From the NCBI RefSeq assembly GCF_000372725.1, contig NW_005202427.1:987581-1027292 (forward strand): 39,712 nt of DNA. The letters are read 5' to 3'. This DNA comes from Emiliania huxleyi CCMP1516. Its lineage: Eukaryota. Shown piece after piece: positions 11,307 through 38,594 of this stretch (position 1 is the first letter of the stretch; every line of letters starts with the position of its first letter). Below the pieces are notes generated by a model, which made no database searches, was not told where the DNA came from, and saw only the letters and a list, made by a program, of their open reading frames with translations. The translations under genes and the position numbers were made by a program.

Positions 11307-11416
11307 CGCTGGCAAAAGAATTTTGGCACGCGCGTTGCTAGACGGATTGAAGGAGAGCGATGAGTCAGAGGATGAAACAGCAGGGGAGAGAACGAGGACG
11401 AGAGTGAGAAGAACGA

Positions 11417-11600
11417 GAGGTGGCATGAAGGTCGCTGCGAGAATTGGTGAGAAACTGCGAAGAGAGATAGGAAGTGGTAGACGAGCGGGCGGTGGGCGAC
11501 GGCTAGCACCACACTCCTCTCCTTAAAATCCCTGTGTGGTGGCGGCGTGCCGTCCTCCCATCCCTCCCTTGGGTTCTCTGTTTTCTTTCTTTCTTTCTTT
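11417..11600 (-). repeat. Copy of the dispersed ~110-240-bp 'AAAGAAAGAAAACAGA..GGGAGGGATGGGAGGACGGCACGCC' element
   Basis: Its reverse complement is near-identical to copies at 35912, 36030, 36576 and 37406. Confidence 0.9.
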
Positions 11601-20716: not shown

Positions 20717-23021
20717 ATGAACGCGACCATCGAGGATCTCCTCGCGAGGCTGGAGCAGCTGGAGGCCCGGGTCGACGAGCACAGTCTTTTCCCTGGCGCG
20801 TCTGCCGACGTCCTCTTCCTTCTTGTGGCGTCGCTGAACGTCTTCTTCATGCAGGCGCCCCGCGCCCCGCCGGCCCCCCCACGCCCTGCTTGCGTCGGCG
20901 CTCCGCCTGGAGCCGCGTGCGTGTGCGTGCACCTCAGCTCGCCCCGCTGCCGCCCCGCGCAGTGCGGTTTTGGAATGCTCGAGGCGGGCTCGGTGACTTC
21001 CCGCTCGACGCAAGCCATCCTGCTGAAGAACCTGCTGGACGCGTGCCTCTCCGCCTTCATCTGGTGGGTGGTGGGGCACGGCATCGCGTTTGATGGCACA
21101 AACGACTTCATCGGCACGGCCGGCTCCGACATGAGCTCATTCTTCCTTTCCGGCTACGGCGCAGGTTCGCCGGCCGCCCATCACGCGCCCTCCCCCCTTT
21201 CCCGCCGCCAGCCCGCTCGCTCGCCCCCCCCCCCCCACCCTATCCCTCAGGCCCCGACTCGGGCTACCATCGCGTCTTCTGGTGGTTCCAGTGGACCTTC
21301 GCCGCCGCCGCCGGCACCATTGTCTCTGGCGCAGTGGCAGAGCGCGCGCAGCTACTCGCCTGTGCGCCTCCCGCTCCCTCGCCCCCCCTTCCCCCTTCCC
21401 CCTCCCTTCCCCCTCCCCGCCCCCTCCCGACCACCATCTCAGCCCACCCCCTCCCGCAGACCTGGCCTACACCTTCATCCTCACCGCCGTCATCTACCCC
21501 ATCATCGTCCACTGGTGCTGGTCCGAGGCGGGGTGGCTGTCCACGAAAAACGGGCATGTCGATTCCGGGGGTAATTTCCCCAGCGACGCGGTGCTGGACG
21601 GGGTGATCGACTTTGCAGGCGGGGAGACCCCCCCCCTTTAACCCCCCCCCCCCCCCCTCTCCCCCCCCCTCCCCAACCCCCCCCAACCCCCCCCTTCACC
21701 CCCCGATATGCGCCTCGCAGGCGCATCGTCGTCAACACGACACTGTCCGCCGCCGGGTCCGGACTCGTCTCGCTCGCCATCGCCACCCTTGGCCAGTGGC
21801 GCCGAGGCACCGTCAACTACGAGGCTCCTGCCATCTGCAGCCGCCATCCTCGCCCAGAGAACAAGACCGCCCCCCCGCCGAAAGAAGAAACACAGCGCGC
21901 TAGGTTCCCGCCATCTGCAACGGCATCCTCGCCGGCCTCGTCTCCATCACCGCCGGCTGCGCGACGGTGCGCCCTCACCCCCACCGCCATCCCCGCCGCC
22001 GTCTCCACCGCCGCCCTTGCCGCTGCCCATCCGTCCGCCGCCCTCACCACCGCCCTCACCACCGCCCTCGGGACGGCCACCACCGTCTCCGAGATTGGGT
22101 GAGACGAGCGTTGCGGCTAGGTGCACCCCTGGGCGGCGCTCGTCATCGGGATGATCGGCGGGCTCGTCTACCGCGGCTGCTCGCACTGTGTGCTCCACAA
22201 GCTCAAGGCGCCGAGAGGTCTAGAAGCGGAGAGACGCAGTCTTGTGCTCCAACTAGCGCGCGAGCGGGCACGTCTTCCGCCGTATTCGGCCCTCTTCTAT
22301 TCATGGTCTTCGCAGTCCGTGTATTCACGACAGTTGCTACCCCCCCCCCCACGGGACACCCACACTGGATTCGATACTATGGAGGTATGGTACAGGTGGA
22401 CGACCCGCTCGACTCGTCGTCAGTGCACGGCGCGTGCGGCGCGTGGGGCGTGATCGCCGCCGCGCTGCTCACCACGGAAGAGTTCGCCGCCGCCGCCGGT
22501 TACCAGCGGCGCGCGGGCCTCTTTTACGGCGGGGGCAAGCTGCTCGGCGCCGCGCTTCTGCAGGTGGTCTGCATCCTCTGCTAGTAACCCTAACCCTACC
22601 CATAACCCTAGCCCTAATCCTAACCCCAGCCCTAACCCCCACCCTCACCCTAACCCTTACCCCAACCCCAACCCTAGCCCTAACCCTAGCCCTAACCCTA
22701 GCCCTAGCCCTGCTATTGCAGATGGTGTGCATCCTCGCCTGGTCGGGCACCAACGCCGGCCTCGTCTTCTTGCTCCTGAAGAAGGCGGGCAAGCTGCGGC
22801 GGAGGGAGACCTGTGCGGAACCCCCTCCCCCCCCCCCTTTTCCCGCAGACATGGCCGCCGCCCCCGAGGAGGACCTCGACTCGTCCATCCACGGAGGGGC
22901 CCCCCTGGAACCCGCCGAGCACGGCTCGGGAAACACGTCGCGGGCAGAGTCCGTCGACACCTCCGACCCCGTCATCGAGATGCCCGATGCCACCCCAGAC
23001 AAGGACCAGCCGGCCGCGTGA
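20717..23021 (+). CDS. AMT: AMT1-type ammonium transporter (multi-exon; central TM5-TM6 exon(s) absent from this sequence)
   Basis: Motifs FFMQ|CGFGMLEAGSV, ILLKNLLDAC, WFQWTFAA..TIVSGAVAER, VIYPIIVHWCW, VIDFAG, VVNTTLSAA, CNGILAGLVSITAGC and KLK|VDDPLD..VHGACGAWG. Several GC-AG introns are present. Confidence 0.92.
22585..22710 (+). repeat. Interstitial telomere-like (CCCTAA/CCCTAG)n tract inside an AMT intron
   Basis: About 20 degenerate taaccc/tagccc hexamers. Confidence 0.9.
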
Positions 23022-23455
23022 GCCGGCCGCCCCCACACACATGCCGCATAATCCCCACGCTGCTAGACTCGCGCGGCCGCCGCAGCGAGCCCTTCTCGAT
23101 ACTGTCGTCTGTACTGTCGTCTGTCGCCGGCCTCATCGCACATGGCCGTGCCTTCCCTACACATGTCGTGACCTTTGTGCTTTGATAGCGTGGCCGGGGC
23201 ACCGAGCTGCGTCTGTGGTCATTGGTCTGTTCCTGGGTTAGAGGTGGTGCAGGAAATTCTCAGCCTCGCACGCACGCATGTCGTCGCGCGGCCGTATTGC
23301 ATAAGACTTTGCATAAGACGTACATAAGACACGCTTCCTCCCAGTGATGGGCTTGCCTCCACCCGCCGGAGTGCGAGTGGTTCGACCCCCCCGCCCCGCA
23401 CACCGCCTCCGCCCACGCAAATGCCCGAAATGCAAATCCGAGACGGGTGATGGGA

Positions 23456-26400
23456 TACTATGTTCAATCCCCCCTCCGGGTGATGCCAGGGCAGCAAAAC
23501 GGGCTACGGGTGGTGCCATGCAGCCAGCCTGACCCCCTAGAGCCGCCCGGCACCACCGCACCGGTGCGAGGCGTGATCGTGCTGCTTGGGGTACATTGTT
23601 GTTTTCATGGGCTCGAATGCGGTGTGAAAAAGGCGCTCCGAGGTGCCGATTTTGCACGAGAGTGCGAGGTTCGAGCTCTCGTGCTCCGTCCACAGGCTGC
23701 GAGCCGTCGAGTGCTCGCTTCGCACTTTCCATTGGGTCCGTTGGCGCATATCGGGCGCCTCGCAGGCACGCCGTCCCCGCGTCTCTGTGGAGGAGATGCG
23801 TCACCCGGTTGCACTCAAATCGCAGCCGAACGCCATATCGCTCCGTGTGCCCCACCGGTGGCTAGCCTGCCGCCACCGCTTCTTCGCACTTTCCACCAGA
23901 TGTGTGGGCGCGGGGCGGATGCCTCGCCGGCAGCCGAGGTGCTCTCTCCTCGGATCCTTTGCGTCACCCGCAAAAAGTTCTTCGGAAGCCACTGCCGTCT
24001 GGGCACTCCACCAGCCCTCCTCGCCTTTTGAGGCTGGGATTGGTGTCGCCCGTGGCATCTGCGCCGGTCGAGAGCTTCCACGTCGCTCATGCGCATCAGG
24101 GCGAGCGAAACGCTCGCCCTCGGACCGGTTGCCTCTGTAGAAGCTAGCCCGCTACTGTGCACCACGCTGTGTCCCTCTCTCAAAGAGGGTGTGTGTGACG
24201 ATACGTTCCTTCTAATCTATACCCGTGCCGAACATCACACGCACACACATCTGAATCACACACACATCTGAAGACAACTATCTGAATCACACGTCGGTCT
24301 AGGTCAACATCTCAAAGTCCGAGTCTGTGTCCTCGGCAGGCTCCTGCTCCGCCGCTGCGCCAAAGGCGGTCAGCGTTGCGGAGCCTGTGTGCGGCAGTTG
24401 GCGCTGGACATAGGCTAGACGTAACAGCGTGCGCACGTCGTTTCGGCGCTGTGCGACGAAGGCGTTGTTTTTTGCCTTCGCCGTCTTCATCGCCGTGCAA
24501 GTCCGCCGCATGCCGTTGAGCGGGGTGATCTCCTCACGCCTGCGGGGGCGGCGCGACACCGGTCAGCCTTATTGCAGGCATGCACACACACACACAGGGA
24601 GAGCGCACCCGCGAAGGTACTCGCTGAAGGAGCGAGTCAGGTCGCTCCTCACGTAGTCGACAGCCACCTCCGCGACAAAGTCCACCCAGAGCGCGCACTC
24701 GTGAGTGCAAGACTGCAGCTGCACATCCACCACCTCCAGCGCCCAGCCGGCGGCAGGCCCGGGGCTCCGGTGGAAGCAAGACGCGATGCCCGAGTCGATT
24801 GCGCCGCCATAGGGCTCGTGGTAGAGCACCCGTCTCTGGTCGACGAAGAAGAGGAGCTGGTGCCAGTGCCCGCCAAACTCGCTGCCGTCGGTAAAGCGCT
24901 GCATGACCAGCTTGCGCTCCGTCGGTGCCTCGCCCGCGAACAGCTTCGCCACCCACCCGGTGGGGGCTCCCGATTTGAAGCGGTTGAAGAGCGATCCGGC
25001 GCGAATCGTCATCCCCGAGATCGGCGCCCTCGCCTGCACGTCCTGGCTGTCGGCCCACGGTGAGAGGTCCTGCATGTTATGCACAATGATGTCGTTCAAG
25101 TGCTCGTCGTACCTGTCCGTCGGCACGGGGCAGCTCGAGCGACGCTGGGTCGCCCGGCCGTAGAGCGTCGGCTCTAGCTCTGTCCACGAGATGCCGAGCC
25201 CAGCTTCTGAGGAGACGGTAGACGAACCGGCCTGGGCGGAGCCAGCAGCACCGCTAGAGGCCGCATCCGTGGTGGAGCTAGAGGCCGCGGCGGAGGAAGT
25301 GGCGGCGGCGGAGCTGGCAGAGCTGGTGGCGGCCGCGCGGTTGAGAGTGGCGGCGGAGGCGGAGGTGCCAGTAGCGGTGGCGGAGGAGGGAGGGTCTGCG
25401 CGTGCCCGACGCCACACGCGGAGGGTGCCGGGCTGGAGCCGCGCGCCGGGGTCGCTCCGGATCGCGTCCAGAGCAAGACGTAGCGCCTCGCCCGCCAAAG
25501 CTTGCCCGGCCTCGGCGGGCAGCAGCTCTTCCACGCTCGACAGCGGCTCGGCCACCTTGCGGATCGGAGTCTTTGACTCGCCGCGGTTCCACGGATCCAT
25601 GATGTAGAGGTCCGACCCATCCAGCACCTCGTGTAGCCAAAGGTGGCTGACCTTGTTTGCCCTGGCGGCTGGAGTCTCCGTAACCAGAGCGAGGTAGACG
25701 CCGGGCTCGTCGCGGTAGGTGATCTCCGCGACGCGGTCCTTCAGGAGCCGGGACCGCGTCTCGGCGATCGATGACACCGGCGACTCGGTCGCGCCTCCGT
25801 CGTGCTGCTGCGCGGCCGTGGCAGCGTCCGCCGCCGCCGCCTCCGCCTCCTCCGCCGCCTCCCCTTCCGCCTCTGAGTCGACGTCGTCGTCGTCATCACT
25901 GCCGTCTACGTCCATTTCGCCAGTCATCGGCAGCTGCGCCGCGCCGCTCGCGCGCTCTGCCCGCCTGGCAGCTACCTCGGCCCTCTCCTCGCTCTCGGCC
26001 CAGCGAAAATCGTCGTCGCTCGCCTCGTACAACTTGTCGGCGTCTCGGTGGGCGGCAGCCATGTAGACCTCGAGCGTGAGAGGGTTGCGAAAGACGGAGT
26101 GATGGACGCCGGTCTTCGCCGTCTTGATCTGCTGTTCGCACTTAAAGTTCGAGATCGGTAGGCTCCGCGAGACTTCGCGAAGGTGCGATAGGAGGTCGAC
26201 CGAGTCCTTGACGAGGTCGCGGTCGACAATCTCCTCCAGCGTCAGCGACGCGTTGCCCGGCTGCTCGAGGACCTCCGAGATATCGTGAAGGATCGCCCGA
26301 AGCGTCGAAGAGCAGATGTCGCCCGGACCCTCGTACCTGTCGGACTCTATCGCGCTCTGCACCTTCTCGGTCGTGCTGCCGTCAAACATGTGGTTCGCGA

Positions 26401-29400
26401 TGCTCTCGTAGAATCCGGTGGCGCCCTGCTTCTCGTACGAGAGCAGGAGGTCGATGGTCGCCTTCAGACCACCCTTGTCGTCCAAGAGGCCATACTGCAG
26501 CAGAAGCGGGTTATCAAAGAAGGGCGAAGACTCGCGCTCAAAGTAGCCACTCGTGCCGAGGCCGTCCACGGTGTATTCGTTGGCCCCAAAAATACTGGTG
26601 GCGAGCGACTCCACGTTGACCGCTCTGAGGGCGGGATTGGCGGCCCGTTGCACAAACTCCTTGACCGGCAGGAGGTCGACAGCCCAGACAGAGGCGATCG
26701 GCGCGTTGGCGGAGTCCGCGGCCGAGGCAAGCCAGGCATAGCAGCGGCGCAACACGCGGTGGACCTTCTCCATCGCTTTCCCCTCGTCATTCTCGGTGAA
26801 GCTTAGGAAAGAGTCAAGCAAGAGGTTGTCGAATTCAGCGATGAGAGCGAGAGCGACGCGGACCTTGGGCTGCGCCACCTCGCGCAGCAGCGCCGCGAGC
26901 TTGGCGCCGATCGAAGTGGGCGACGAGTCGAACTTGTCGTCCAGCAGCACCGCCATACCCTCAAAGCCGATCGGGTCGGCGAGCGGGTCGTCCACGCCGC
27001 CCGAAGCAGGAGCCAGGCCACCGAAGCCGTTTGCGCGCAGCTCGTAGTCGACGACAAAGGTCAGGCCAATCTCAAGCCGCCGGCTTGTCGGGGCGAGGTA
27101 GGAGGCCTGGCCGCAAGAGTAGCCCCAACGCATTCCGGGCGACAGAGGCGCGCCGCCGAGCGTCTTCAGACCCTCCGTCTTTCGGATGTGCTCGGTGCAG
27201 CCGGGGGTCGTGCGAAGGGCGTAGCAGAGGTCCTCCAGCAGCTCAGTCGCGCGCCACCGACTCCCGCTCACCTCGTCGTCTCGCCTCTTTCGGTGCGAGA
27301 GGAGCAGGCCCGGAGCCCGCGTGAGCGGCCCGAGTGAGCGGAGGGCTTGCAGCCCCGAGTTGTGGCCGATGTGAGAGAGGCACGGGATGCGCGTAATCAG
27401 CCAGTGGCCGCCGCCCGTGTCCGCCTCGATGAGCTCGCAGAGCTGCTTGTGCACGCCTGCGTGTCGGCCGCTCATCGTGTTGTCGTTGTCCGAGCAAATG
27501 AAGTGCAACAGCTCGAGCGGCGCGCCCGTCGCCTTGACCGACCGCAGCGTCTCCCTGGCGATTACCGCAGCGGTCTTTTGCTTGCCGAGGTGCGAGGCGA
27601 AGCAGGAGACCTCACGGAGCCCGTCGTGCGGGCGAGTTGCTCCGAGGTGTCCCGCTATGAACCCTCTCCGAGAGCGGGAGCCGAGGTCGAAGGCGACGAA
27701 GTAGGTCACGCGCGAGAAGGTGAACTCCACCTCTTGCATGCGCTGCACCCGGTGGACGGCCCGGTCGATGAGGGAGCACGTGCCCGCGCTCGGCAGCCGC
27801 ACGCGTGCGATATCGTCGTCCGAGATGTCGAACAGGAGCGTGGCGCCATCCCGAGCGAGCGACGCAGCGCCGCGCATCGAGATTGAGCGCTCCGTACCGC
27901 TTTTGTGGCGGTACAAGTACACGGCCTTGCGCAGGGCGGCCGAGTAACGATTACCCGTCATGTTTTGACGCAGCGCGTACTCGACTCGATGGCGTGGCCG
28001 GCCGCGCTGCGGCCGGCGCGCCTCCGCTGCCCGCACCTCCGCCGCGCGCTGCCACAGGCCGAGGAGCGAGTCGGCCTCTGTCGGCTCCACCTTGCCGAGC
28101 ACGCCGGGCAGGTGGAGCGAGAAGAGCTTCACGTCGTCGATCGCCTGCAGGGCGGCCCGCTGCAACAGCGGAGTGTTGAGCGACGCCTGCAAGACGTCGA
28201 GGCTGTAGAGGCCCGGGAGCGTCGGCACGTCGCTGGGCTCGTACACCAGCAGCAGCTGCGAGCGAAACGCTACGCCGAGGGAGCGGCCGGAGCGGCCCTG
28301 TACCTCTGGCCGCATGACGAATTCGCACATCATCAACTGAATGAATGCACCCCCGCCAAAGTGTCGCAGCGGGTTCGAGAGCTTCAGCGCCAGTTCTCGA
28401 ACGAGCCTCGTCGTTGCCGCCGCGTGCAGCCGCTGCCGCCGCCGCTCCTCCTCGCGCAGCCCTACGACTTGCAAGTCGAGCCGGGCTTGGGCACGCAGCT
28501 CGCGAGGCGTCGGCACGCCTGATGTTTGCGTCCCGGTTGTCGCTGTAATCGCTTCGCGAGCGGCGGCACGGTGGCCAACCTCCTCCAGCTCGAGGCGTCC
28601 GATGTCTGCCACCAGCGTGAGCACGCTTGCTTGCTGCTGCTGCTGCTGCTGCGCAGGCTCCGCTGGAGCACTGCTCAGAGAGGGAGGTTCCTCGTCAACC
28701 TCCATGCGATCTCCGTTCGAGGCCGCAGCCGACGAGCCGCCGACGAGCCGCTGCGGCGCTGCACGGGAGAGCGATCCTCGGCGTCCGTGCTCTCTCTGGT
28801 TGTAGATCCCGTCGCGGCGGCCCTCGTCGCTCGTGCTATGCAGCTCCATGGCCTCGCCGAGGACGTCGCCAACCGTAGCATGCCGCGGCGCTCTCAGGTT
28901 CTTTGCGACGCCGACTCTGCGCGAGCCAGCACGGCTTTGCGGCCGCGAGGACGTTGCACTCGGCGAGGGCGCCTGTTGTGACGAGATCGGAAGCGTGAGA
29001 TAGCGACGACTGCGCAGGCACAGAGTCGCAAACTGGCGGTACCGAGCGGCGATCTGGTCCTGGCCTGGAGCCGGGACGGACTCCTTGGCCGCTTTTGCGA
29101 CGCTGTCCCAGGCCTGCGCCCGCTCTTTTCGGCATGGCTCGAGCACGAGACAAGTCGGAAAACCGCGACAACTTCGGCGGGCATTCACAGATTTTTACCA
29201 CCTCGGAAGCAACGCCTGTGTGTTCACCGGTGCTAGAGAGTGTCGAAAAGGAGTCCACACTGCATTCATCGACATCAACGCGCCCCGCTGCGCCGCGCTA
29301 CTCGCGAGAGCGGGAGGAGATTTGGGGAGATTGTCGGGAGATTTCCAAGATTGTCACCGGGGTGTGCGTGGGTAAGTCGTGCGTCCTACGTGCCAAGGCG

Positions 29401-29647
29401 ATGTGCATGCTAGTCTGGCTCGTCCCAATACGCTCAGGGGGCCGAGAACAGCGCTCTGTCGCGCGCTACTTTCCGTGCTGCTGAGAGAGGCCCGGAGGGG
29501 CCCACCACGGCCCACGCTCGCCTCGGAAATGCAAAAAAATGCTCCCAGGCCCCCTCCCGCCCACCCCGCACACCTGCTTGACTACTCCCGAGCCCCACGA
29601 GCCGAGGCGAGAAAGTTCGAATTAAAGTGCGGAGTTTGAACATGGTA
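23456..29647 (-). mobile_element. Autonomous hAT-like DNA transposon (~6.2 kb) with 12-bp TIRs and a 6-bp TSD
   Basis: Left end TACTATGTTCAA (23456-23467) and right end TTGAACATGGTA (29636-29647; reverse complement TACCATGTTCAA) match at 11/12. ATGGGA directly flanks both ends (23450-23455 and 29648-29653). The ends enclose the transposase gene. Confidence 0.75.
24299..29135 (-). CDS. hAT-like DDE transposase fused to a C-terminal Ulp1/adenain-like (clan CE) cysteine protease; exons 29135-29043, 28972-24609, 24539-24299 (~1565 aa)
   Basis: Transposase motifs FVAFDLGS (D), FICSDNDNTMSG..AGV (D), RIPCLSH (CxxH), MRW and LPISNFKCEQQIK (E). Protease motifs GGHW, LYHEPYG and QLQSCTHECALWV. Two ~70-nt GT-AG introns restore one continuous frame. 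Confidence 0.8.
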
Positions 29648-31813
29648 ATGGGATGCTGGCTCTGTGGTCTCAGGCCCAGTGAGGTAGTGCACGCGACTAT
29701 CTCCCGGATCCTGCTGAACAAGCTCCTCTTGTAGCTCGATCGGTCACACCGCCATCACCGTCGAGGAGAGGGGGGACGACACTGCCTCAGCACACAGAGC
29801 AGCGTGCACCTCGATCCTGTACCGTGTTTGTTATGACCCCCCCCAGTGAACACACCAATGAGGGTGGGCGAGACGATCGAGGGGTCCCGTACCACGCGGA
29901 ATCGACCCTATCCAGTGCTCAAGTGCTCAAGACACGCTATGGACTAAGATATGCATTCGCGCGACGTCTAACCCTGCCAATGCACTGTGTACTCTCTAGG
30001 AGAGTACATAAGCTAAAAGTATACGTACATAGGCAGGACACACCGGTGCATATAGGGCCGGTACATACACATAGCAGTACTGGCCACGTCCCGCGCTGCC
30101 TCCCGGCCCAGTTTCAGATTTTTCAGCGCGCCGCTCGCATGTGCGGCGCGATCGTCCGCCATGAGTCGATCGGCAGCGCGACTCGTAACTTGCGGCCATG
30201 CTATCACCCTTGCGACAGCCTGTCGGCGCTGCTGACCGTGCCCTGCTGCACAATTGACCACCTGCATAGCTCGCGGCCTTAGCATCCAGCACATTCAGTG
30301 ACGACCTGATCGACCTGATCGTACGGCCAGTAGGAAGGTGTCCTTCCAGCGCGTGCACGCTTCTGACGCAATGCGCGTCACAAACTGCCTCGGATTGGCT
30401 GCTGGCAATCTCGAGGCTATGCCTACACAGCCTCGCGCGCATGGGTAGTCAAGAGGGACCACGCACCTTCTCAGGACAGCGCCGGTGCCTCTCTCTTGGA
30501 CCGGCCTGTCTGCTGTCTGGAGTGATATGTCGGCGGTCAGTACGACCGATCAGGTCGGAGTTTGCTGATGATTGGAGGGTCTATCTGTATGTACTCCTCG
30601 AGATCTCTCCAAATCTTCCCTCTAATCAACCGTAATCATTCGGGAAGTTGGCGCTCTGAGCGACTCTGAGCGCCGGGGCCCCGTTTCCGCACTGCTGCGC
30701 GGCGCACGGTGCCTCCGGGGGCCCCCGCCTCCCCCCAGAGCCGGATGCTCGGGGACGGGCTACGGGCAAGAGAGCCCTGACCCCGAGCACTTGGAGCAGT
30801 TGGGAGCCTCACACCCAGGGCCGGGGAGCTCAGAAGCGCACCCAGCGGGCCAGATGATCGGGATCGGGTTGCGGGCAAGAGAGCCCTAGCCCTGGGGGGT
30901 GCGCGTTCGCAGGGAAGGGGCCATAAAGAAGTAAACACGGTTCTCCGAGGGTTGGACCCGCGTACCGGGTTTCCCTTAACTGCAGGACGCCCCCTCTACT
31001 CGGAGCTAGATGCAGTGGACATTACACTGTACACCACGCACAATCACAGACACTTGCTTAGAGCCGTAGAGCACTTGGAGCACTTGGAGTGCAGTTGGCA
31101 GCCGCACGCCCAGGCAGGGCCGGGGAGCTAAGAAGCGCACCCAGAGGCCGGACGATTGGGGCAGCGGCGCGCCTGCAACTGGCTCGATGCGGCCGCCGGC
31201 GACGGGTTGACGCGGCTCGATCTGCTTCTCATCTTCACGTTCGTCGCGTTTTGGAGGAGCTCATCTCCATGTATGCAGCGTCGAATACACGTCGTGCATG
31301 AGGGTGCAGGATGAGAACGTAGAGCCGCGGGCGCGCCGGGGTGACCCGGATGAGACGACAGAAGACGTACTGCAGTGGATACACGCACTACACACACCAA
31401 AGATCACCAAGCACAGAAGATCAGCCTAGGAAAGACAAGCAGAGCACGGGCTGTCGGCGCGATCCATTTCAAGCCACCCAGGGCCCGGCGCGGCTAGAGG
31501 GGGGGGTGTTCTCTAGGCCCCTAAAGGCCCTACGCGCGGCGTGAGAGCTCGGAAGCGAGCTTACACGGCGATCGAGGATGGCGCGGTTCACCCCCTTCAC
31601 CGAAGCGATGGACCAGATGCGTTCCGCGTGGTGTGAAACAAACGAGAGGCGGGAGTGCTCTCTCTAAATGTACGTAAGAGCCACATAAAAGAGAGAGGTG
31701 GTCAACGAGACCGAGCATCAAAACTTCAGGAAAGAAGAAAAAGAAAAACTCCGGTCTGAATCAACATTCTGTACCCCTCCTCTGCACCCCACACTCCGTC
31801 GGTCAAGCGGTCA

Positions 31814-34800
31814 ATGGCGTTGGCCCACGGCGTCGTGACGGCAGAGCTCGAGCGGCCGTTGCTTGCGAACGATCGGCAGGCCTCGAATCCGCGGGAGGGT
31901 CTTACCTCCGCCCAAGCCGCTGCGCTTCTGCAGGAGTTTGGTCGAAATGAGATCGTCGAAGAGAAGGTCGCCGACGACCACCGCCGCTTCGTGAGTTACG
32001 CTTCGCATAGTAACCGCCACCTCCTCGGCCCACACCACAGGAGTCCATGCTCTACATGTTCACCAAGCAGTTCCTCGGCACGATGCCAGCCATGATCGAG
32101 CTCTCGGCGATCCTTGCAGCGGCGCTCGGCGACTGGCTCGACTTTTTCATCATCGGCGCTCTGCTGCTCACAAACGCGACCCTCGGCTTCATCGAGGAGC
32201 TAAACGCCCAGAGCTCTGTCGACGCCCTCAAGGACGGCCTCATCCGCAAACTCCCGGTCAAGCGCGACGGCAAGAGTGTCATGATTGAGATCACCGAGGT
32301 AGTTCCCGGGGACGTGGTCTGCCTCTCCCGCCGTTGCAGTCCGCTGTTCTCCAGCCCCTTCCCAAGTCTGCGCGCTTCACTGTAGGTCTTTGTGCGCGGC
32401 GGCAACGTCGTGCCTGCAGACGGCCGCTGGCTGCATGGTGACGAGCTCTCGGTCGACCAGGCTGCGCTCACGGGAGAGTCGCTGCCCGTCGCCGTGCCGC
32501 GCGAGGACGGCGATGAGGTCGGCTCGGGCGAGAAGCTGTGGAGCGGCTCCATCATCAAGACGGGCGAGGCCGAGATGCTCGTCACCGAGACGGGGCTCAA
32601 CACGATGATGGGCGAGGCCGCCAAGTCGATCCAGGAGTCGAGCGGCCACCAGGTCGGCCTGCTCGAGTCCAAGATCCAGGCGTCGGGCAAGGTGCTGATC
32701 CTCATCACGCTCGTCGCCGTCTCGGCGCTCCTCTACTACCAGGTGGTCGTGCGCGGGCAGGAGCTGGGTGAGATCCTCGAGATGTCGCTCTGCCTCGTCA
32801 TCGCCAGCGTGCCCGTGGCGCTGCCGATGGTGCTCAAGGTGACGCTCTCCGTCGGCGCAAAGGAGCTCGCGGGGGAGGGCGCCATCGTCACTCACCTCAC
32901 CGCGCTGGAGGAGGTCGCCTCGATGCGCGTGCTGTGCTCCGACAAGACGGGCACGCTCACCACCGCGCAGATGACGGTCTACCACTCCATGGCGAAGTGC
33001 TGGAACGGCTTCACCGCCGAGCAGGTCCTGACTTACGCGGCAGTCGCCTCCAATGCGGCCAACAAGGACGACGCCATCGACCGCGCGGTCTACCAGGCCT
33101 TTGCCGAGATGAGCGTCGGCCCGGGCGGGGACGTGGACGTCGCGGCCGACGCGCTAGGAAAGAAGTTCCGCACCGAAAAGTACTTTGGCTTCAACCCGAC
33201 TGTCAAGCGGACGGTCGCGGACGTGCTCGATCTCAACACGGGGAAGAAGTTGCGCGTGGCGAAAGGCCACCGTCGCGATGGCCTCGAGACCCGAAGCTGT
33301 GACATATCACTGATACCACGACACCTGGCCATAGGCATTGTCTCCAAGATCCTCGAGACGGGCGCCGACGGCGGCGAGACCTGGAAATGCTCCGACTTCG
33401 ACACGATCGCGCCAAGCGTCCGCGTGGCCGATGCGGAGTTCGGCAAGCAAGGCTACAAGACGATCGCGGTCGCGGTGGGCGTCAACGGAGGCCCGATGAA
33501 GTACGCCGGCACGTTGCCGATCATGGACCCGCCGCGCTCAGACACGGCGTCGACGATTGCCAATATCCGCGGCTCTGGCGTCGCCGTCAAGATGATCACC
33601 GGGGACCACCTCAACATCGCGAAGGAGATGGCGCGCCAGATTGAGCTCGGAACCAACATCATGCCCAACACGGAGCTATGGCCGGTCTCGGCCCAGCGCG
33701 ATGAGCTCATCCACTGGGCCGACGGCTTTGCCCAGGTGATGCCGAAGGACAAGCACGAGGTGGTGGCGGTCTTGCAGCAGGCTGGCCTTGTCGTCGGCAT
33801 GACCGGAGACGGCGTCAACGACGCGCCAGCTCTGGCGAAAGCACAGGTTGGCGTCGCCGTCGCCGGCGCCACCGACGCGGCCCAGACAGCGGCCGACATC
33901 ATCCTTACCCGCGAGGGGCTAGGGCCGATTTACACTGCGATCCTCACGTCGCGGCGCATCTTCAAGCGGCTCAAAGCGTACGTCGTCTACCGCATCTGCT
34001 GCACCGTACAGGTCGTCTGCTTCCTGTGCTTCCTGTCCTTCGTCTTCAACGAGGCCTTCTCCGCGCTCTACATCATCCTGCTCGCGCTCTTCCACGACCT
34101 GACCATCGTCACCATCGCGTACGATAAGCAGACGCCGTCGGCGCAGCCAGAGACACCGACCGTTCGCGGGCTGGTCGTCCAGTCGTACGCGATGGGCCTC
34201 TTCCTTGCCGCCGGCTCATGCATCCTCTTCGTCTACGGCCACGCGTTCATGAGCGAGTCCTTCGTCGAGTCTTTCAAGTACAAGGAGGCGCTCATGTTCT
34301 TACAGATCACAAACTCGTCCGCCTTTCTCATATTTTCGGCGCGCACCCCCGGCTTCTTCTTCGCTTCGACACCCGACAACAAGCTCGCCGGGTCGGCCAT
34401 CGCATCGCAGATCGTCGTGAACGGACTCGTTCTCTTCTCGGGCGGGTGAGATGCAGCCTAGACGAAGCCGTTACGTAGCTTCCTACACCCCCGCCTCTGC
34501 CCCGGTGCCAGTTGGCTGGTGAACGAGCTCCGGCCACAAGATGTGCTCATCACCTGGCTGTACAACCTCGTCTTGCTGCTGCTACTCGACGTGGTCAAGA
34601 TGGGGGTGCTCGAGGCCGAGGCCCTCCTCGAGGGCGGCGCCTCGCGGCCATCGGGCCGCAACGCCTTTGCCGGCCTCGCGTCGTGCTGTGGCCTCCTCGG
34701 CGGCTCGAAGCGGACGGCGACGTCGGCCGGCCGCGGTACTCGCGCTTCCGTCTCGCGCTTCCAGTCGGGCTCGAGCCGCCTCTCCCAGGCGAACGTCAGC

Positions 34801-34965
34801 GGGCTGCACAAGATGAACTCGCTGAAGAACATCGACGCCCTCGGCTCGCCAAAGTCGCAAAAGGGTGCGCTCCTCCCCGGCCCGGCGATCGTGGCTGCGC
34901 GCGTGAGCGGCTTCGGGAACGTGGACGAGAAGTTCGACCGCTTCCTGCTGCAGCGCCACCAGTAG
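31814..34965 (+). CDS. P3A-type plasma-membrane H+-ATPase; exons 31814-31966, 32041-32316, 32386-33265, 33335-34445, 34512-34965
   Basis: Motifs GLTS..A..LL..FG.NEI, VVPGD, DQAALTGESLPV, VLCSDKTGTLT, DPPR, MITGDH, FAQVMPKDK, MTGDGVNDAPAL, YVVYRI and ALFHDLTIVTIAYD (proton-acceptor Asp). Confidence 0.93.
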
Positions 34966-35229: not shown

Positions 35230-35911
35230 AGGGGACGATCCGGGCGAGTGTGGCAGTCTAGTATCGTGCCCTGTGTGTGAAGAGTAGTGGCAATTCGGGA
35301 TCGTGAAAAGTTGATGAAATCATTACCCCGGGACACGCGCCCCCGGGGCGCGCAAACTGTCACTTCTCGCAGGCTGCGAGAGACAAGCTTTCTCGGAGCG
35401 ACAGGCTCAAAACAAATAAGGGTATGTTGGGTGCGATCACTAGCGAACGCCAGTGCGCTCCAGAATGGTGCGAATGCCCTTCGATCGCGTCGGTCCTTCG
35501 AACACGCCGTACGCCACCCTAGGGTTCGGTACGTACTTTCTATCCTCCGCCATTTTGTCTTCCTGGTCCATTCCTCCGTCCGTCGCCGCAAAGTGTGTGA
35601 AATCGTGTGAGACGTGCAGCGCGAGGCATGTCTGCGCTACTTTCACGTTCAGGGCTCGTCCCTTCCCGGATCGGAGCGGCTCGCTGTCTGTTCCCATCTT
35701 GATTTGCGCTCCTTTGCCGTCTCTCAGCTCGCCCCCGTCTCAAATTCGTCGTATCGGAGCAAGAAGCGCGTTAGGAGCTTAGGGGATCCTCCTGTAGCTC
35801 CCCTACTCTGATCGCGCTCGCCCCGTGTCCGTTATCCCACAAACAGCTCGTAGCCTTCGTTCTGCCAGTTTCTGTGTCTCTGGGGCGCTCCCTCTGGGAA
35901 CCAATTTTCTC

Positions 35912-36209
35912 AAAGAAAAGAAAGAAAACGTACAACCCAAGGGAGGGATGGGAGGACGGCACGCCGCCACCACACAGGGATTTCACTGGAAGGAAGGTGT
36001 GTTGCTAGCCGTCGCCCACCCTTTTTCTCAGAAAGAAAGAAAGAAAACAGACAACCCAAGGGAGGGATGGGAGGACGGCACGTCGCCACCACACAGGGAT
36101 TTTAAGGAGAGAAGTGAGGTGCTAGCCGTCGCCCACCCTTGTGCGTCTACCTTTTCCTATCTCTGTTCGCAGTTTCTCGCCAATTCTCGCAGCGACCTTC
36201 ATGCCACCT
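35912..36209 (+). repeat. Two adjacent copies of the dispersed AAAGAAAGAAAACAGA element (35912-36020, 36030-36209)
   Basis: Near-identical to the copies at 11417-11600 (reverse complement), 36576 and 37406. Confidence 0.9.
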
Positions 36210-36249
36210 TTTTTGCCACCCTTTTTCTCCTGCGAAAGGAGTTCGCTGC

Positions 36250-36575
36250 GAAAATTCTTTTTCTCGAGTCGTTCGGTGGGTTCGGGAAGGGGGTCGGCGA
36301 GATCCTCTGGAAGGCGGCGGACGTTCGACAGAACAAGCTGACGCGGGCCCAGTACCTCGATGAGGTGACTTGGACCACCAAGAACGGGCTAAGGCTGCAG
36401 AAACAGCGTATCTCAGTCGTTCTTCACACGGCCATCGCAGAGCAGATTGTGAATGAGCTTGCCTGCGGCGAGGGCGGTCGAGTGCACGGAGCTAAGTGCC
36501 TCACCGTCCTCGCAGGAGTCGCTTAGGCGGCTCCCGTGGTGTACCTGTGTTAGTGCCAGTGCGCGCCAGTCCCGC
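36250..36575 (+). mobile_element. 5'-truncated fragment of an RLE-type (CRE/R2-like) non-LTR retrotransposon
   Basis: ILFLESFGGFGKGVGEILWKAA...QKQRISVVLHTAIAEQI resembles the C-terminal restriction-like endonuclease end (P..hEThG.hG.....L..LA...QRLSV.LQ.GNA). The stop at 36526 is followed by a short UTR and an A-rich tract. Confidence 0.55.
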
Positions 36576-36682
36576 AAAAGAAAGAAAGAAAACAGAAACC
36601 CCGAGGGAGGGATGGGAGGACGGCACGCCGCCACCACACAGGGATTTTAAGGAGAGGAGTGTGGTGCTAGCCGTCGCCCACC
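36576..36682 (+). repeat. Dispersed element copy
   Basis: aaaagaaagaaagaaaacagaaaccccgagggagggatgggaggacggcacgcc...gtcgcccacc. Confidence 0.9.
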
Positions 36683-36742
36683 TGTAGAGGCCGCCGGAAA
36701 CGGGACTATACGCGGCACCCGCGCTCGTCGCGCCCCGGGGCG

Positions 36743-37360
36743 GTGCGCAGACATCGCGAATTTGCCCGCTCGCTCGACCCTTTTGCCGCGAGAGGGCGCC
36801 GGCCGCGTGTAAGAGGTGGCTGGCGCCCTCTCGCGGCATTTGGTGGCGTGGGGAGTGTGGAACGCTACTGGCGGTGTGACAGGGCCTCTCTCGGTTGCGT
36901 ATGCCGCCATCGGCACGCGGGTGCACAGACATCGCGACTCCTGCGCGACTCTGCCCGCTCGCTCGACCCTTTTGCCGCGAGAGGGCGCCGGCCGCGTGTA
37001 AGAGGTGGCTGGCGCCCTCTCGCGGCATTTGGTGGCGTGGGGAGTGCGGAACGCTACTGGCGGCGTGACAGGGCCTCTCTCGGTGCGTATGCCGCCATCG
37101 GCACGCGGGTGCGCAGGCATCGCGACTCTGCCCGCTCGCTCGACCCTTTTGCCGTGAGAGGGCGCCGGCCGCGTGTAAGAGGTGGCTGGCGCCCTGAGGC
37201 GGCAATTGGTGGCGTGGGGAGTGTGGAACGCTACTGGCGGTGTGACAGGGCCTCTCTCGGTTGCGTATGCCGCCCCATCGGCACGCGGGTGCACAGGCAT
37301 CGCGACTCTGCCCGCTCGCTCGACCCTTTTGCCGCGAGAGGGCGCCAGCCGCGTGTAAGA
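36743..37360 (+). repeat. ~180-bp tandem repeat (about 3.4 units), each full unit carrying a GC-rich hairpin
   Basis: Units start at ~36743, 36921, 37109 and 37289. The inverted repeat is tgccgcgagagggcgcc...ggcgccctctcgcggca, degenerate in unit 3. Confidence 0.9.
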
Positions 37361-37405
37361 CTAACCCAAGGTCAGCGTGCGGGGCTAAGTCATGTTGTTG
37401 CTCTT

Positions 37406-37700
37406 AAAAGAAAGAAAGAAAACAGACAACCCAAGGGAGGGATGGGAGGACGGCACGCCGCCACCACACAGGGATTTTAAGGAGAGGTGTGTGGTGCGCT
37501 ATCCGTCGCCCACCCTAGGGAGTCTGCCTCTTCCTATCTCTCTTCGCAGTCTCTCGCCGATTCTCGCTGCAACCTTCATGCCACCTCGCGGTCGTCCCAC
37601 CCTCGTCGTTCTCTCCCTTGTCACTTCCTCCTCTGTCGCGTCGTTCTCTTAAAAGAAAGAAAGAAAACAGACACGCCAAACGAGGGATGGGACGAGCGTC
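37406..37700 (+). repeat. Long copy of the dispersed element followed by a variant copy starting at 37651
   Basis: The same 5' AAAAGAAAGAAAGAAAACAGAC start occurs at 37406 and 37651. Confidence 0.85.
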
Positions 37701-37808: not shown

Positions 37809-38594
37809 ATGTCATCTGGCTTCCTCCGTGGCGGCTCGTCGGGAACGATACCACGAGAGGCGCGTGTCACGGCTCCTCAAAACAGACCGGCCGAGATCCG
37901 CGCACTCACGTCGTGCGGTCGGCGCCTAGGGCAACTTCGCCCTCAAGCCGTACTTGGACTGTATCCGAGAGACGCTGGGCGCCGCGCTCTGCGTGAGCAA
38001 CTTTGCGTCGCAGATCGTCGAGAGGCACAACAAGCCCGAGGTGGAGGTCGGCACGTCGAGCGAGCTGCTGCTGAACCCGATCGTGATCAGGCGATCCGAC
38101 CATGAGTCGGTCCTCATCGAGTCGGCAGTCAACTCCGTCCGCTTCTCCATCAAGGCGCGCATTGCTGCGGAGGGAGTCGCCCGCCTCGCCGCCGCCTCGC
38201 CCCACCCCGCCCCCCCTGCCCCCCCCCTCCGCGGGTCGCAGGTCAAGCAGCTCGATGAGATGGACGAGATCCTGGCGCGCAAGTTCACGCGCTTCCTGAT
38301 GCTGCGCGCCGACAACTTCATCGTCCTGCGGCGCAAGCCGGTCCCCGGGTACGACATCTCCTTTTTGCTGACAAACTTCAACGTCGAGGCCCTCTGGAAG
38401 CACAAGCTTATTGACTTTGTGATCCAGTTTATGGAGGAGATCGACTCGGAGATCTCGGTACGCGCACCGCCGCGACGAGTGCCCCCTACCCACCCCAACC
38501 CGCCCCCCGCCCACATCCGGCGCAGGCGATGAAGCTGGCGGTGAACGAGCGAGCGAGGATGGTAGGCTACCAGTACCTGCGCGAGATGTGCTAG
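37809..38594 (+). CDS. ARPC4: Arp2/3 complex subunit 4 (p20); exons 37809-37859, 37930-38154, 38242-38457, 38526-38594
   Basis: Motifs [76 protein letters not shown] and [21 protein letters not shown]. Two GC donors are used. The first exon is less certain. Confidence 0.95.

Follow-up and report, generated by a model that had tools for sequence, protein, structure and literature searches.

A hAT-type transposon of Emiliania huxleyi with a predicted clan CE cysteine protease fused to its transposase

The element and its ends

The window, by which we mean the whole 39,712-nt stretch of Emiliania huxleyi CCMP1516 DNA analysed here (contig NW_005202427.1, positions 987,581 to 1,027,292), carries a 6,192-bp transposon whose single spliced gene encodes a hAT-type transposase, a small beta-strand domain and a predicted clan CE cysteine-protease tail in one protein. 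An earlier sequence-only reading had described the gene as a hAT-like transposase fused to a Ulp1/adenain-type protease, and had missed the ends of the element and the third folded domain, the small beta-barrel. The features of the element, including its terminal inverted repeats (TIRs), are the following, in window coordinates.

23450..23455, no strand: left target-site duplication ATGGGA, 6 bp (scan for TIRs with duplications)
23456..29647, minus: whole transposon, 6,192 bp, multicopy, N-free (TIR and duplication scan, depth step, contig breaks, metagenome copies)
23456..23472, plus: TIR at the element's 3' end, TACTATGTTCAA (11/12 and 14/17 identical to the other end)
24299..24539, minus: exon 3, encoding the helical C-terminal extension, with the stop codon (in relatives, too, the protease is followed by similar sequence)
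24540..24608, minus: intron 2, 69 nt, GT-AG; its (TG)n tract differs in length from copy to copy (RNA contigs X14 and X12)
24609..28972, minus: exon 2, 4,364 nt, stop-free, with all transposase and protease catalytic residues
24611..25135, minus: clan CE cysteine-protease domain, His1400, Glu1417, Gln1451 and Cys1457 (profile match to 7fiu, OtDUB fold, Atlas)
25508..25774, minus: conserved small domain of six beta strands, flanked on each side by a disordered linker
26027..27901, minus: hAT-type transposase, RNase H-fold core with the Asp-Asp-Glu (DDE) triad and an all-helical insertion domain (fold match to Hermes, conservation)
28973..29042, minus: intron 1, 70 nt, GT-AG (one RNA joint in X12; one unspliced RNA contig, X15)
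29043..29135, minus: exon 1, 31 amino acids (aa), basic, with a putative start codon
29631..29647, minus: TIR at the element's 5' end, TACCATGTTCAA (comparison of the ends, metagenome copies)
29648..29653, no strand: right target-site duplication ATGGGA, 6 bp (TIR and duplication scan; second 6-bp pair in metagenome contigs L014/L004)

The scan of the window for inverted ends with flanking duplications gave 30 candidates, the longest of which was the pair 23456/29647 with ATGGGA on both sides. The TIR core is 12 bp, the inverted ends extend over 12-17 bp with the termini TACCA..TGGTA, and in the copies found in metagenome contigs the sequence is TACC(A/G)TGTTCAA. An 8-bp duplication with one mismatch was rejected on the evidence of the other copies, which end at TAC. 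The duplication is 6 bp and not 8 bp; the first base past the right end already agrees with the -6 position. When a pattern for both ends was searched in the metagenome, 20 contigs were obtained, 18 of them members of the family, and the remaining two (L002 and L009) were discarded as chance matches to the pattern. The family members comprise 13 left ends with 11 different flanks and five right ends with five different flanks, and in all 18 the similarity to the window ceases at the terminus or at most 1 base from it. The left/right pair L014/L004 shares a 6-bp duplication, and no left/right metagenome pair fits a duplication of 4, 5 or 7-10 bp.

In all four DNA runs the summed contig depth, which is not equal to copy number, is higher inside the left end than outside it, at 51-508 in the element's first bin against 3-33 in the bin of the flank. 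DNA contigs of three runs start or stop within about 30 bases of the termini (starts at 23456 and 23476, stops at 29619-29627), and two contigs of RNA run X10 depart from the window exactly at 23456. The element is a multicopy, likely autonomous, cut-and-paste transposon. Internally deleted copies are common; one 2,281-bp deletion (25407-27687), which takes out the catalytic core from the first Asp onward, dominates run X1, a run that possibly represents the sample of origin, with a depth of 148 against about 15 for the core. This deletion spares an N-terminal open reading frame (ORF) of about 460 aa, seen in proteins P0007 and P0008 (the latter with 30 members), and we can only speculate that it might yield a repressor-like product.

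Gene structure and transcripts

On the minus strand a stop-free frame of 1,541 aa runs from 29194 to 24572, and once the GT-AG introns 29042-28973 and 24608-24540 are removed, the frame that opens with the ATG at 29135 and closes at 24299 encodes exactly 1,565 aa and has a single stop, at its end, in agreement with the approximately 1565 aa announced by the sequence-only reading. The GC content is 84-87% at codon position 3 versus 47-48% at position 2. RNA contigs bear out the second of the two proposed introns, whereas the first is backed by one short joint, and one RNA contig is unspliced there. Two studies have RNA contigs without intron 2, X14 making a 69-nt jump and X12 a bridge with 9 unexplained extra letters; the DNA contigs keep the intron, and RNA contig X15 enters it by 12 bases. 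For intron 1, the joint in X12 has a short side of 23 letters and X15 reads through. Exon 2 by itself covers the whole stretch between the first catalytic Asp and the Cys of the protease, so neither splice is needed for the fusion, and the claim of one fused protein holds, the same architecture being kept in three other lineages.

In four RNA runs no contig extends from the transposase to the protease, and 26296-26723 and 26938-27365 are uncovered, although such contigs cannot show absence. One X10 RNA contig skips 25725-28753 in frame (net 3,027 nt) and joins the N-terminus to the barrel and protease, and another X10 contig has lost 1 nt at 24982, which would truncate the protease.

The transposase domain

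Conservation was assessed in a 42-row alignment (A5) that includes some near-duplicates; it leaves out 22 short or redundant rows of an earlier 64-row alignment (A1, dropped as misaligned) and adds the protein P0123. Among the rows that cover each site, the first Asp is kept in 15/15, the second in 20/21, the Cys and His of the CxxH motif in 22/22 and 21/22, the Arg and Trp of the RW motif in 23/24 each and the Glu in 13/13. In the spliced protein these are D460, D526, C562xxH565, R646-W647 and E977 (codon starts 27688, 27490, 27382/27373, 27130/27127 and 26137). The structure model built from this alignment has a mean predicted local distance difference test (pLDDT) of 78.9. With Foldseek its 11 top rows are all Hermes (E 5.5e-8), the P-element transposase reaching E 0.01, and a second, independent structure aligner again matches Hermes (Z 16.3, root-mean-square deviation (rmsd) 5.0, 419 residues aligned over model residues 3-627, insertion domain included) versus Z 9.8 or less for integrase cores. 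The top match in a viral library is a hAT protein, and the Atlas leads (0.84-0.87) point to hAT clusters.

Sequence searches gave less. Pfam found nothing significant in the window protein or its parts, the single match of the transposase in a single-sequence PDB search was taken as chance, and the armadillo repeats that were all a transposase profile (A3) retrieved from PDB were rejected on the same ground. The window transposase was likewise unmatched among viral contigs in a single-sequence search.

An RW motif in the helical insertion domain is a feature of the hAT superfamily, as is the forming of hairpins on the flanking DNA, and an N-terminal BED zinc finger is one of canonical hATs (Ac, Buster, Tip). 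A C/DxxH motif after the second Asp is common to hAT as well as P, MuDR, Kolobok and Dada elements. The hAT duplication is usually 8 bp, lengths of 5, 6 and 7 bp being accepted as hAT5, hAT6 and hAT7 (PMC12730594). Of the superfamily features our element has a DDE triad in an RNase H fold, the CxxH and RW motifs, short TIRs and, at two insertions, a 6-bp duplication, and it lacks the 8-bp duplication and the BED finger of the canonical members. It resembles Hermes and canonical hATs in the DDE RNase H core, CxxH, RW, helical insertion domain and short TIRs, and differs from the canonical ones in its 6-bp duplication, the missing BED finger, a length of 1,565 aa, a spacing of 451 aa between the second Asp and the Glu, a tail of beta-barrel and protease, and the lack of a Pfam hAT match. 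The predicted Hermes-like fold supports its assignment as a hAT-type transposase.

The protease and the small beta-strand domain

The protease residues His1400, Glu1417, Gln1451 and Cys1457 (codon starts 24868, 24817, 24715 and 24697) are kept in 16/16, 15/16, 16/17 and 16/16 of the A5 rows covering them. A sequence-profile search matched the deubiquitinase (DUB) domain of CidB (7fiu, E 2.4e-7) and five more structures, all six being clan CE ubiquitin-like protease (ULP) or DUB enzymes, and in the profile alignments the His, acid residue, Gln and Cys are in register with 7fiu and ChlaDub2. The structure aligner places OtDUB first among the proteases (Z 13.8, rmsd 2.6, 143 aligned), followed by CidB (12.7), RickCE and SseL (12.0 each), NEDP1 (11.3), pS273R (11.2), I7L (11.0), adenain (10.8, rank 15) and Ulp1 (10.2); ranks 2-25 are clan CE-type folds, with deubiquitinases leading. 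Foldseek matches include NEDP1, SENP and I7L, and Atlas leads at 0.95 to clusters in which 17-42% of the members carry Peptidase_C48. From the single sequence, the PDB search of the protease gave no match and the structure prediction a pLDDT of 35.

On the strength of the modelled structure and the six profile matches, we regard the predicted clan CE protease fold of the tail as secure. The subfamily cannot be assigned, the Z differences being small and the identities 8-19%: OtDUB, the CidB DUB, RickCE, SseL, NEDP1, I7L and adenain all share with the tail its fold and its His-acid-Gln-Cys order at that level of identity. The His-Glu-Cys triad is a feature of adenain, and the acid residue here is a Glu. 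The catalytic residues of both domains lie where the sequence-only reading had placed them and are nearly invariant, and its hAT-like transposase and clan CE protease are both upheld, with Hermes as the best fold match of the former. Its adenain-type label has no specific support, given that adenain scores below OtDUB and is absent from the six profile matches.

Between the two catalytic domains, and between two linkers that are long and disordered in the model and whose sequence is not conserved in relatives, lies the small domain of six beta strands (pLDDT 72-94; 20-29% identical in relatives). It has no Pfam or PDB sequence match. Its predicted shape leads us to infer an SH3/Tudor-like barrel; 'Tudor-like' is used here as a provisional label, because the barrel profile matched nothing and the fold searches barely test this part.

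Conservation of the fusion

A HMMER search returned 69 proteins at E 0.001 or better. Transposase and protease occur in a single ORF in three other lineages (P0024, P0028, P0029 and their cluster members), which are 26% identical to the window protein over the core; over the protease the identity is 23-27%. Among 187 fetched proteins, 11 from four lineages, the window's included, have the order transposase-barrel-protease, with cores 26-49% identical. The end of the transposase is reached by 40 proteins, and all 11 that continue for 450 aa or more carry the protease. Across the four lineages the protease domains, 23-47% identical and about as diverged as the transposases, all retain the His, Glu, Gln and Cys. 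Comparison of the proteins thus supports a real fusion kept by distant relatives, and conservation is as strict in the protease as in the transposase, so that the protease is likely of importance to the element.

A piece annotated in Emiliania huxleyi is 100% identical, the only other named relatives come from Prymnesium polylepis, and the rest are metagenome proteins; it is after these few named relatives that we speak of a putative haptophyte lineage. In a sister family 49% identical to the window's (the P0123 cluster, 13 members) the ORF ends 109 aa past the transposase in a TG-repeat-like tail, which possibly reflects an extra intron giving the two-ORF look of the Shanks element described below.

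Relation to known elements

The Repbase subgroup hATv comprises 16 haptophyte elements, E. huxleyi included, and members of the group have been reported to move in cultured T. lutea (PMC10138859). Its T. lutea member Shanks is 6,768 bp long and duplicates 7 bp of target; its TIRs, which begin with TAGGG, are 26 bp, its two ORFs, of 793 and 580 aa, have no Pfam or HHpred matches, and no protease is reported in the accessible text (PMC10138859). Our element resembles hATv and Shanks in its host range, with E. huxleyi among the haptophyte hosts, in its similar length (6,192 bp), in short imperfect TIRs of which, compared by eye, 9 of the first 14 bases are equal to Shanks at one end, in a duplication other than 8 bp, in many deleted copies, in the absence of Pfam matches and in an ORF sum near the size of our protein. 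It differs from Shanks in its 6-bp duplication, its termini and its single ORF. The lineage, set beside hATv by description, is probably Repbase hATv or its sister. The fusion likely explains the unannotated ORFs of the haptophyte hATv elements.

A 6-bp duplication is also shared with hAT6 (PMC12730594, citing Kapitonov and Jurka 2007), which sits among Blackjack and animal hATs and whose account there mentions no protease. Ulp1 domains are carried by Ginger1 and Mutator elements, with a function given as unknown (PMC2836005, PMC13317346), and VANC/Kaonashi offers a further precedent for ubiquitin-like (Ubl) proteases on transposases (PMC13317346). In these elements, as here, a clan CE protease is carried by a DNA transposon, in Ginger1 also C-terminal to the transposase (PMC2836005, PMC13317346); they differ in belonging to other transposase superfamilies and in having a C48 domain recognisable by Pfam, whereas ours is sub-threshold and has Glu as the acid residue. 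An architecture Zf-BED-DUF-Dimer_Tnp_hAT-Peptidase_C48 is listed for Gossypium gene models (PMC9296551), and so hAT and C48 domains do occur there in one predicted protein; these are automated classes of host gene models, confined to Gossypium and with a canonical BED-hAT, and neither mobility nor a real fusion is demonstrated in the accessible text. Given these reports of hATv and of the cotton models, the earlier suggestion of an undescribed lineage is doubtful. The literature search, with Repbase Reports and subscription journals outside its range, found no account of a mobile hAT that carries a clan CE protease. Further background came from PMC5751038, PMC10318531, PMC9587614, PMC11342252, PMC3942097, PMC12973397 and PMC10175614.

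The element represents a divergent lineage of haptophyte hATs to whose transposase a clan CE protease is fused, and it is real, well delimited and conserved. Its parts are known, the combination has precedent in other superfamilies, and it is not a new class of element.

Alternative readings and possible roles of the protease

Several observations weigh against this description. Identity to Hermes is 8-12%, there is no significant Pfam hAT or C48 match in any of the 42 alignment members (best C48 E 0.074; PF02902 reaching at best about 13 bits against a cut-off of 20.7, in 4/42), and no BED-like pattern was seen in the window protein, with two Cys in its first 450 aa, or in any of the three long relatives checked. 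On the protease side, the poxvirus enzyme I7L is the top protease in Foldseek, and clan CE also includes polyprotein-processing enzymes. In the window family Cys-Ala and His-Leu-Asn-Asp stand in place of the Cys-Gly and Trp/Tyr-Leu-x-Asp of most relatives, replacements by which the enzyme of this copy could be weaker. Indels break the protease frame in five of the seven metagenome copies that cover it, and probably in a sixth; with 5 silent and 9 replacement changes between copies, the protease offers too few differences for selection to be shown. As for the fusion, of the 40 proteins extending to the end of the transposase 29 stop no more than 374 aa beyond it and show no protease; introns or contig ends may have cut these gene calls short, or they may truly be protease-less members. 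The hidden Markov models for the census of domain order were built partly from the same proteins, and the window protease alone scores the three full-length relatives at 27.9, 25.2 and 15.0 bits.

The low identity to Hermes, the lacking Pfam hAT match and an rmsd of 5 or more would also fit an element that is not a hAT, belonging instead to another C/DxxH superfamily (Dada, Kolobok, P, MuDR), to IS3EU or to a superfamily of its own, the more so as solved structures exist for few such superfamilies and as the 6-bp duplication and TAY..RTA ends are like those of IS3EU. We hold this to be improbable, for 419 residues align to Hermes, insertion domain included, and both CxxH and RW are conserved. 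Fungal IS3EU members have TAYGG..CCRTA termini and TIRs of more than 30 bp (PMC12730594), and although the 6-bp duplication is common to both, the ends here begin TACCA, not TAYGG, and the TIRs are 12-17 bp. Dada elements are described as having no TIRs and as inserting in small-RNA genes, in a paper that reports an exonuclease and makes no mention of Ulp1; here TIRs are present, the flanks are heterogeneous and a tRNA/snRNA search called none at the insertion site.

In hAT biochemistry, a DDE site with CxxH and RW cuts the element ends and inserts them with a stagger. By analogy, D460, D526 and E977, aided by CxxH and RW, would cut at the ends described here and insert with a 6-bp stagger, and the deleted copies may be mobilised in trans. 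The small beta-barrel may read chromatin. For the protease, the likeliest role, which we favour with some reserve and which is predicted from the modelled fold, is the local removal of ubiquitin, NEDD8 or SUMO by the tethered enzyme from the transposase or from nearby chromatin proteins; this would protect the transposase from degradation or inhibition, or loosen silencing at the donor or target site. The nearest folds of the protease are deubiquitinases, and the protease is tethered to an enzyme that sits on chromatin.

The same enzyme might instead act on its own polyprotein, in the manner of adenain, I7L and pS273R on viral precursors, and by this cleavage release or activate the transposase. 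The adenain-like triad, the place of I7L among the Foldseek proteases, the Z scores of all three viral enzymes and the presence of two long disordered linkers speak for such cleavage, which we nevertheless find unlikely, since the deubiquitinases score higher, all six profile matches are Ubl proteases and the linker sequence is unconserved (no systematic search for conserved cleavage sites was made). Rather unlikely, too, is an action after cutting, in which the protease would tune ubiquitin or SUMO repair signals at the broken donor or target site and not silencing or degradation. This has been proposed for the Ulp1 and OTU domains of Ginger1 (PMC2836005), and the fusion does tether the enzyme to the cut site; the data do not separate it from local mark removal in defence of the transposase, as one enzyme activity would serve both. 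That the protease is a captured passenger without a role in transposition seems to us very improbable with its His, Glu, Gln and Cys kept in four such diverged lineages, even though gene capture by transposons is common (PMC13317346), non-autonomous copies freely lose the frame and the window family has the Cys-Ala variant.

Local mark removal, our preferred role, can be extended to the tentative and somewhat doubtful proposal that the hAT lineage is old and spread throughout the haptophytes, with a chromatin-reading barrel and an active Ubl protease built into every autonomous transposase as an anti-defence module. If this is true, such a tail would be shown here for the first time on a mobile hAT, and no single-protein system would be simpler for asking why Ubl proteases are captured again and again by unrelated transposons. 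Ulp1-like domains are found repeatedly on Ginger1 and Mutator, and here one stands in a single exon with a hAT-type transposase. With a single-exon fusion, defined 12-bp ends, an intact multicopy gene and conserved residues at hand, a Cys1457Ala change would directly test whether the protease aids transposition.

Insertion site and other features of the window

The element sits between an ammonium transporter gene and a P-type ATPase gene, and the other annotated features are these.

21094-23021, plus: ammonium transporter gene (PF00909)
31800-34960, plus: P-type ATPase (E1-E2 ATPase) gene
37930-38529, plus: ARPC4 (Arp2/3 subunit) gene

At the insertion site, an RNA contig of X15 joins a left-flank-like sequence (starting GAGTGGTTCGACCCC) to the right flank, matching window 23376-23455 and 29644-29690, and is probably an empty-site relative of the repeat that received the element. 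The GGTTCGA motif of this left-flank-like sequence resembles a tRNA B box; the tRNA search called none. In an X10 RNA contig the 7 bases past the right end match the window (ATGGGAT, 29648-29654) before the sequences diverge, and this may be either a rearranged form of the same locus or a second insertion at an identical target. Beside the element, 29650-31200 consists of very high-depth repeats, with a summed contig depth of 6,000-265,000 versus 3-58 in unique flank. The flank of one metagenome copy (L020:1854-1883) nearly equals window 30957-30986, a part of this neighbouring high-copy repeat, so that another copy inserted into the same repeat family.

Elsewhere in the window, an AACCCT-like repeat at 22573-22717 apparently lies in an intron of the ammonium transporter gene. 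A 106-nt repeat family has 4-5 copies at 35898-37695 and an inverted copy at 11397-11598, and three 167-nt tandem copies with internal hairpins occupy 36742-37274; together, the 106-nt and 167-nt repeats are possibly a small mobile element.

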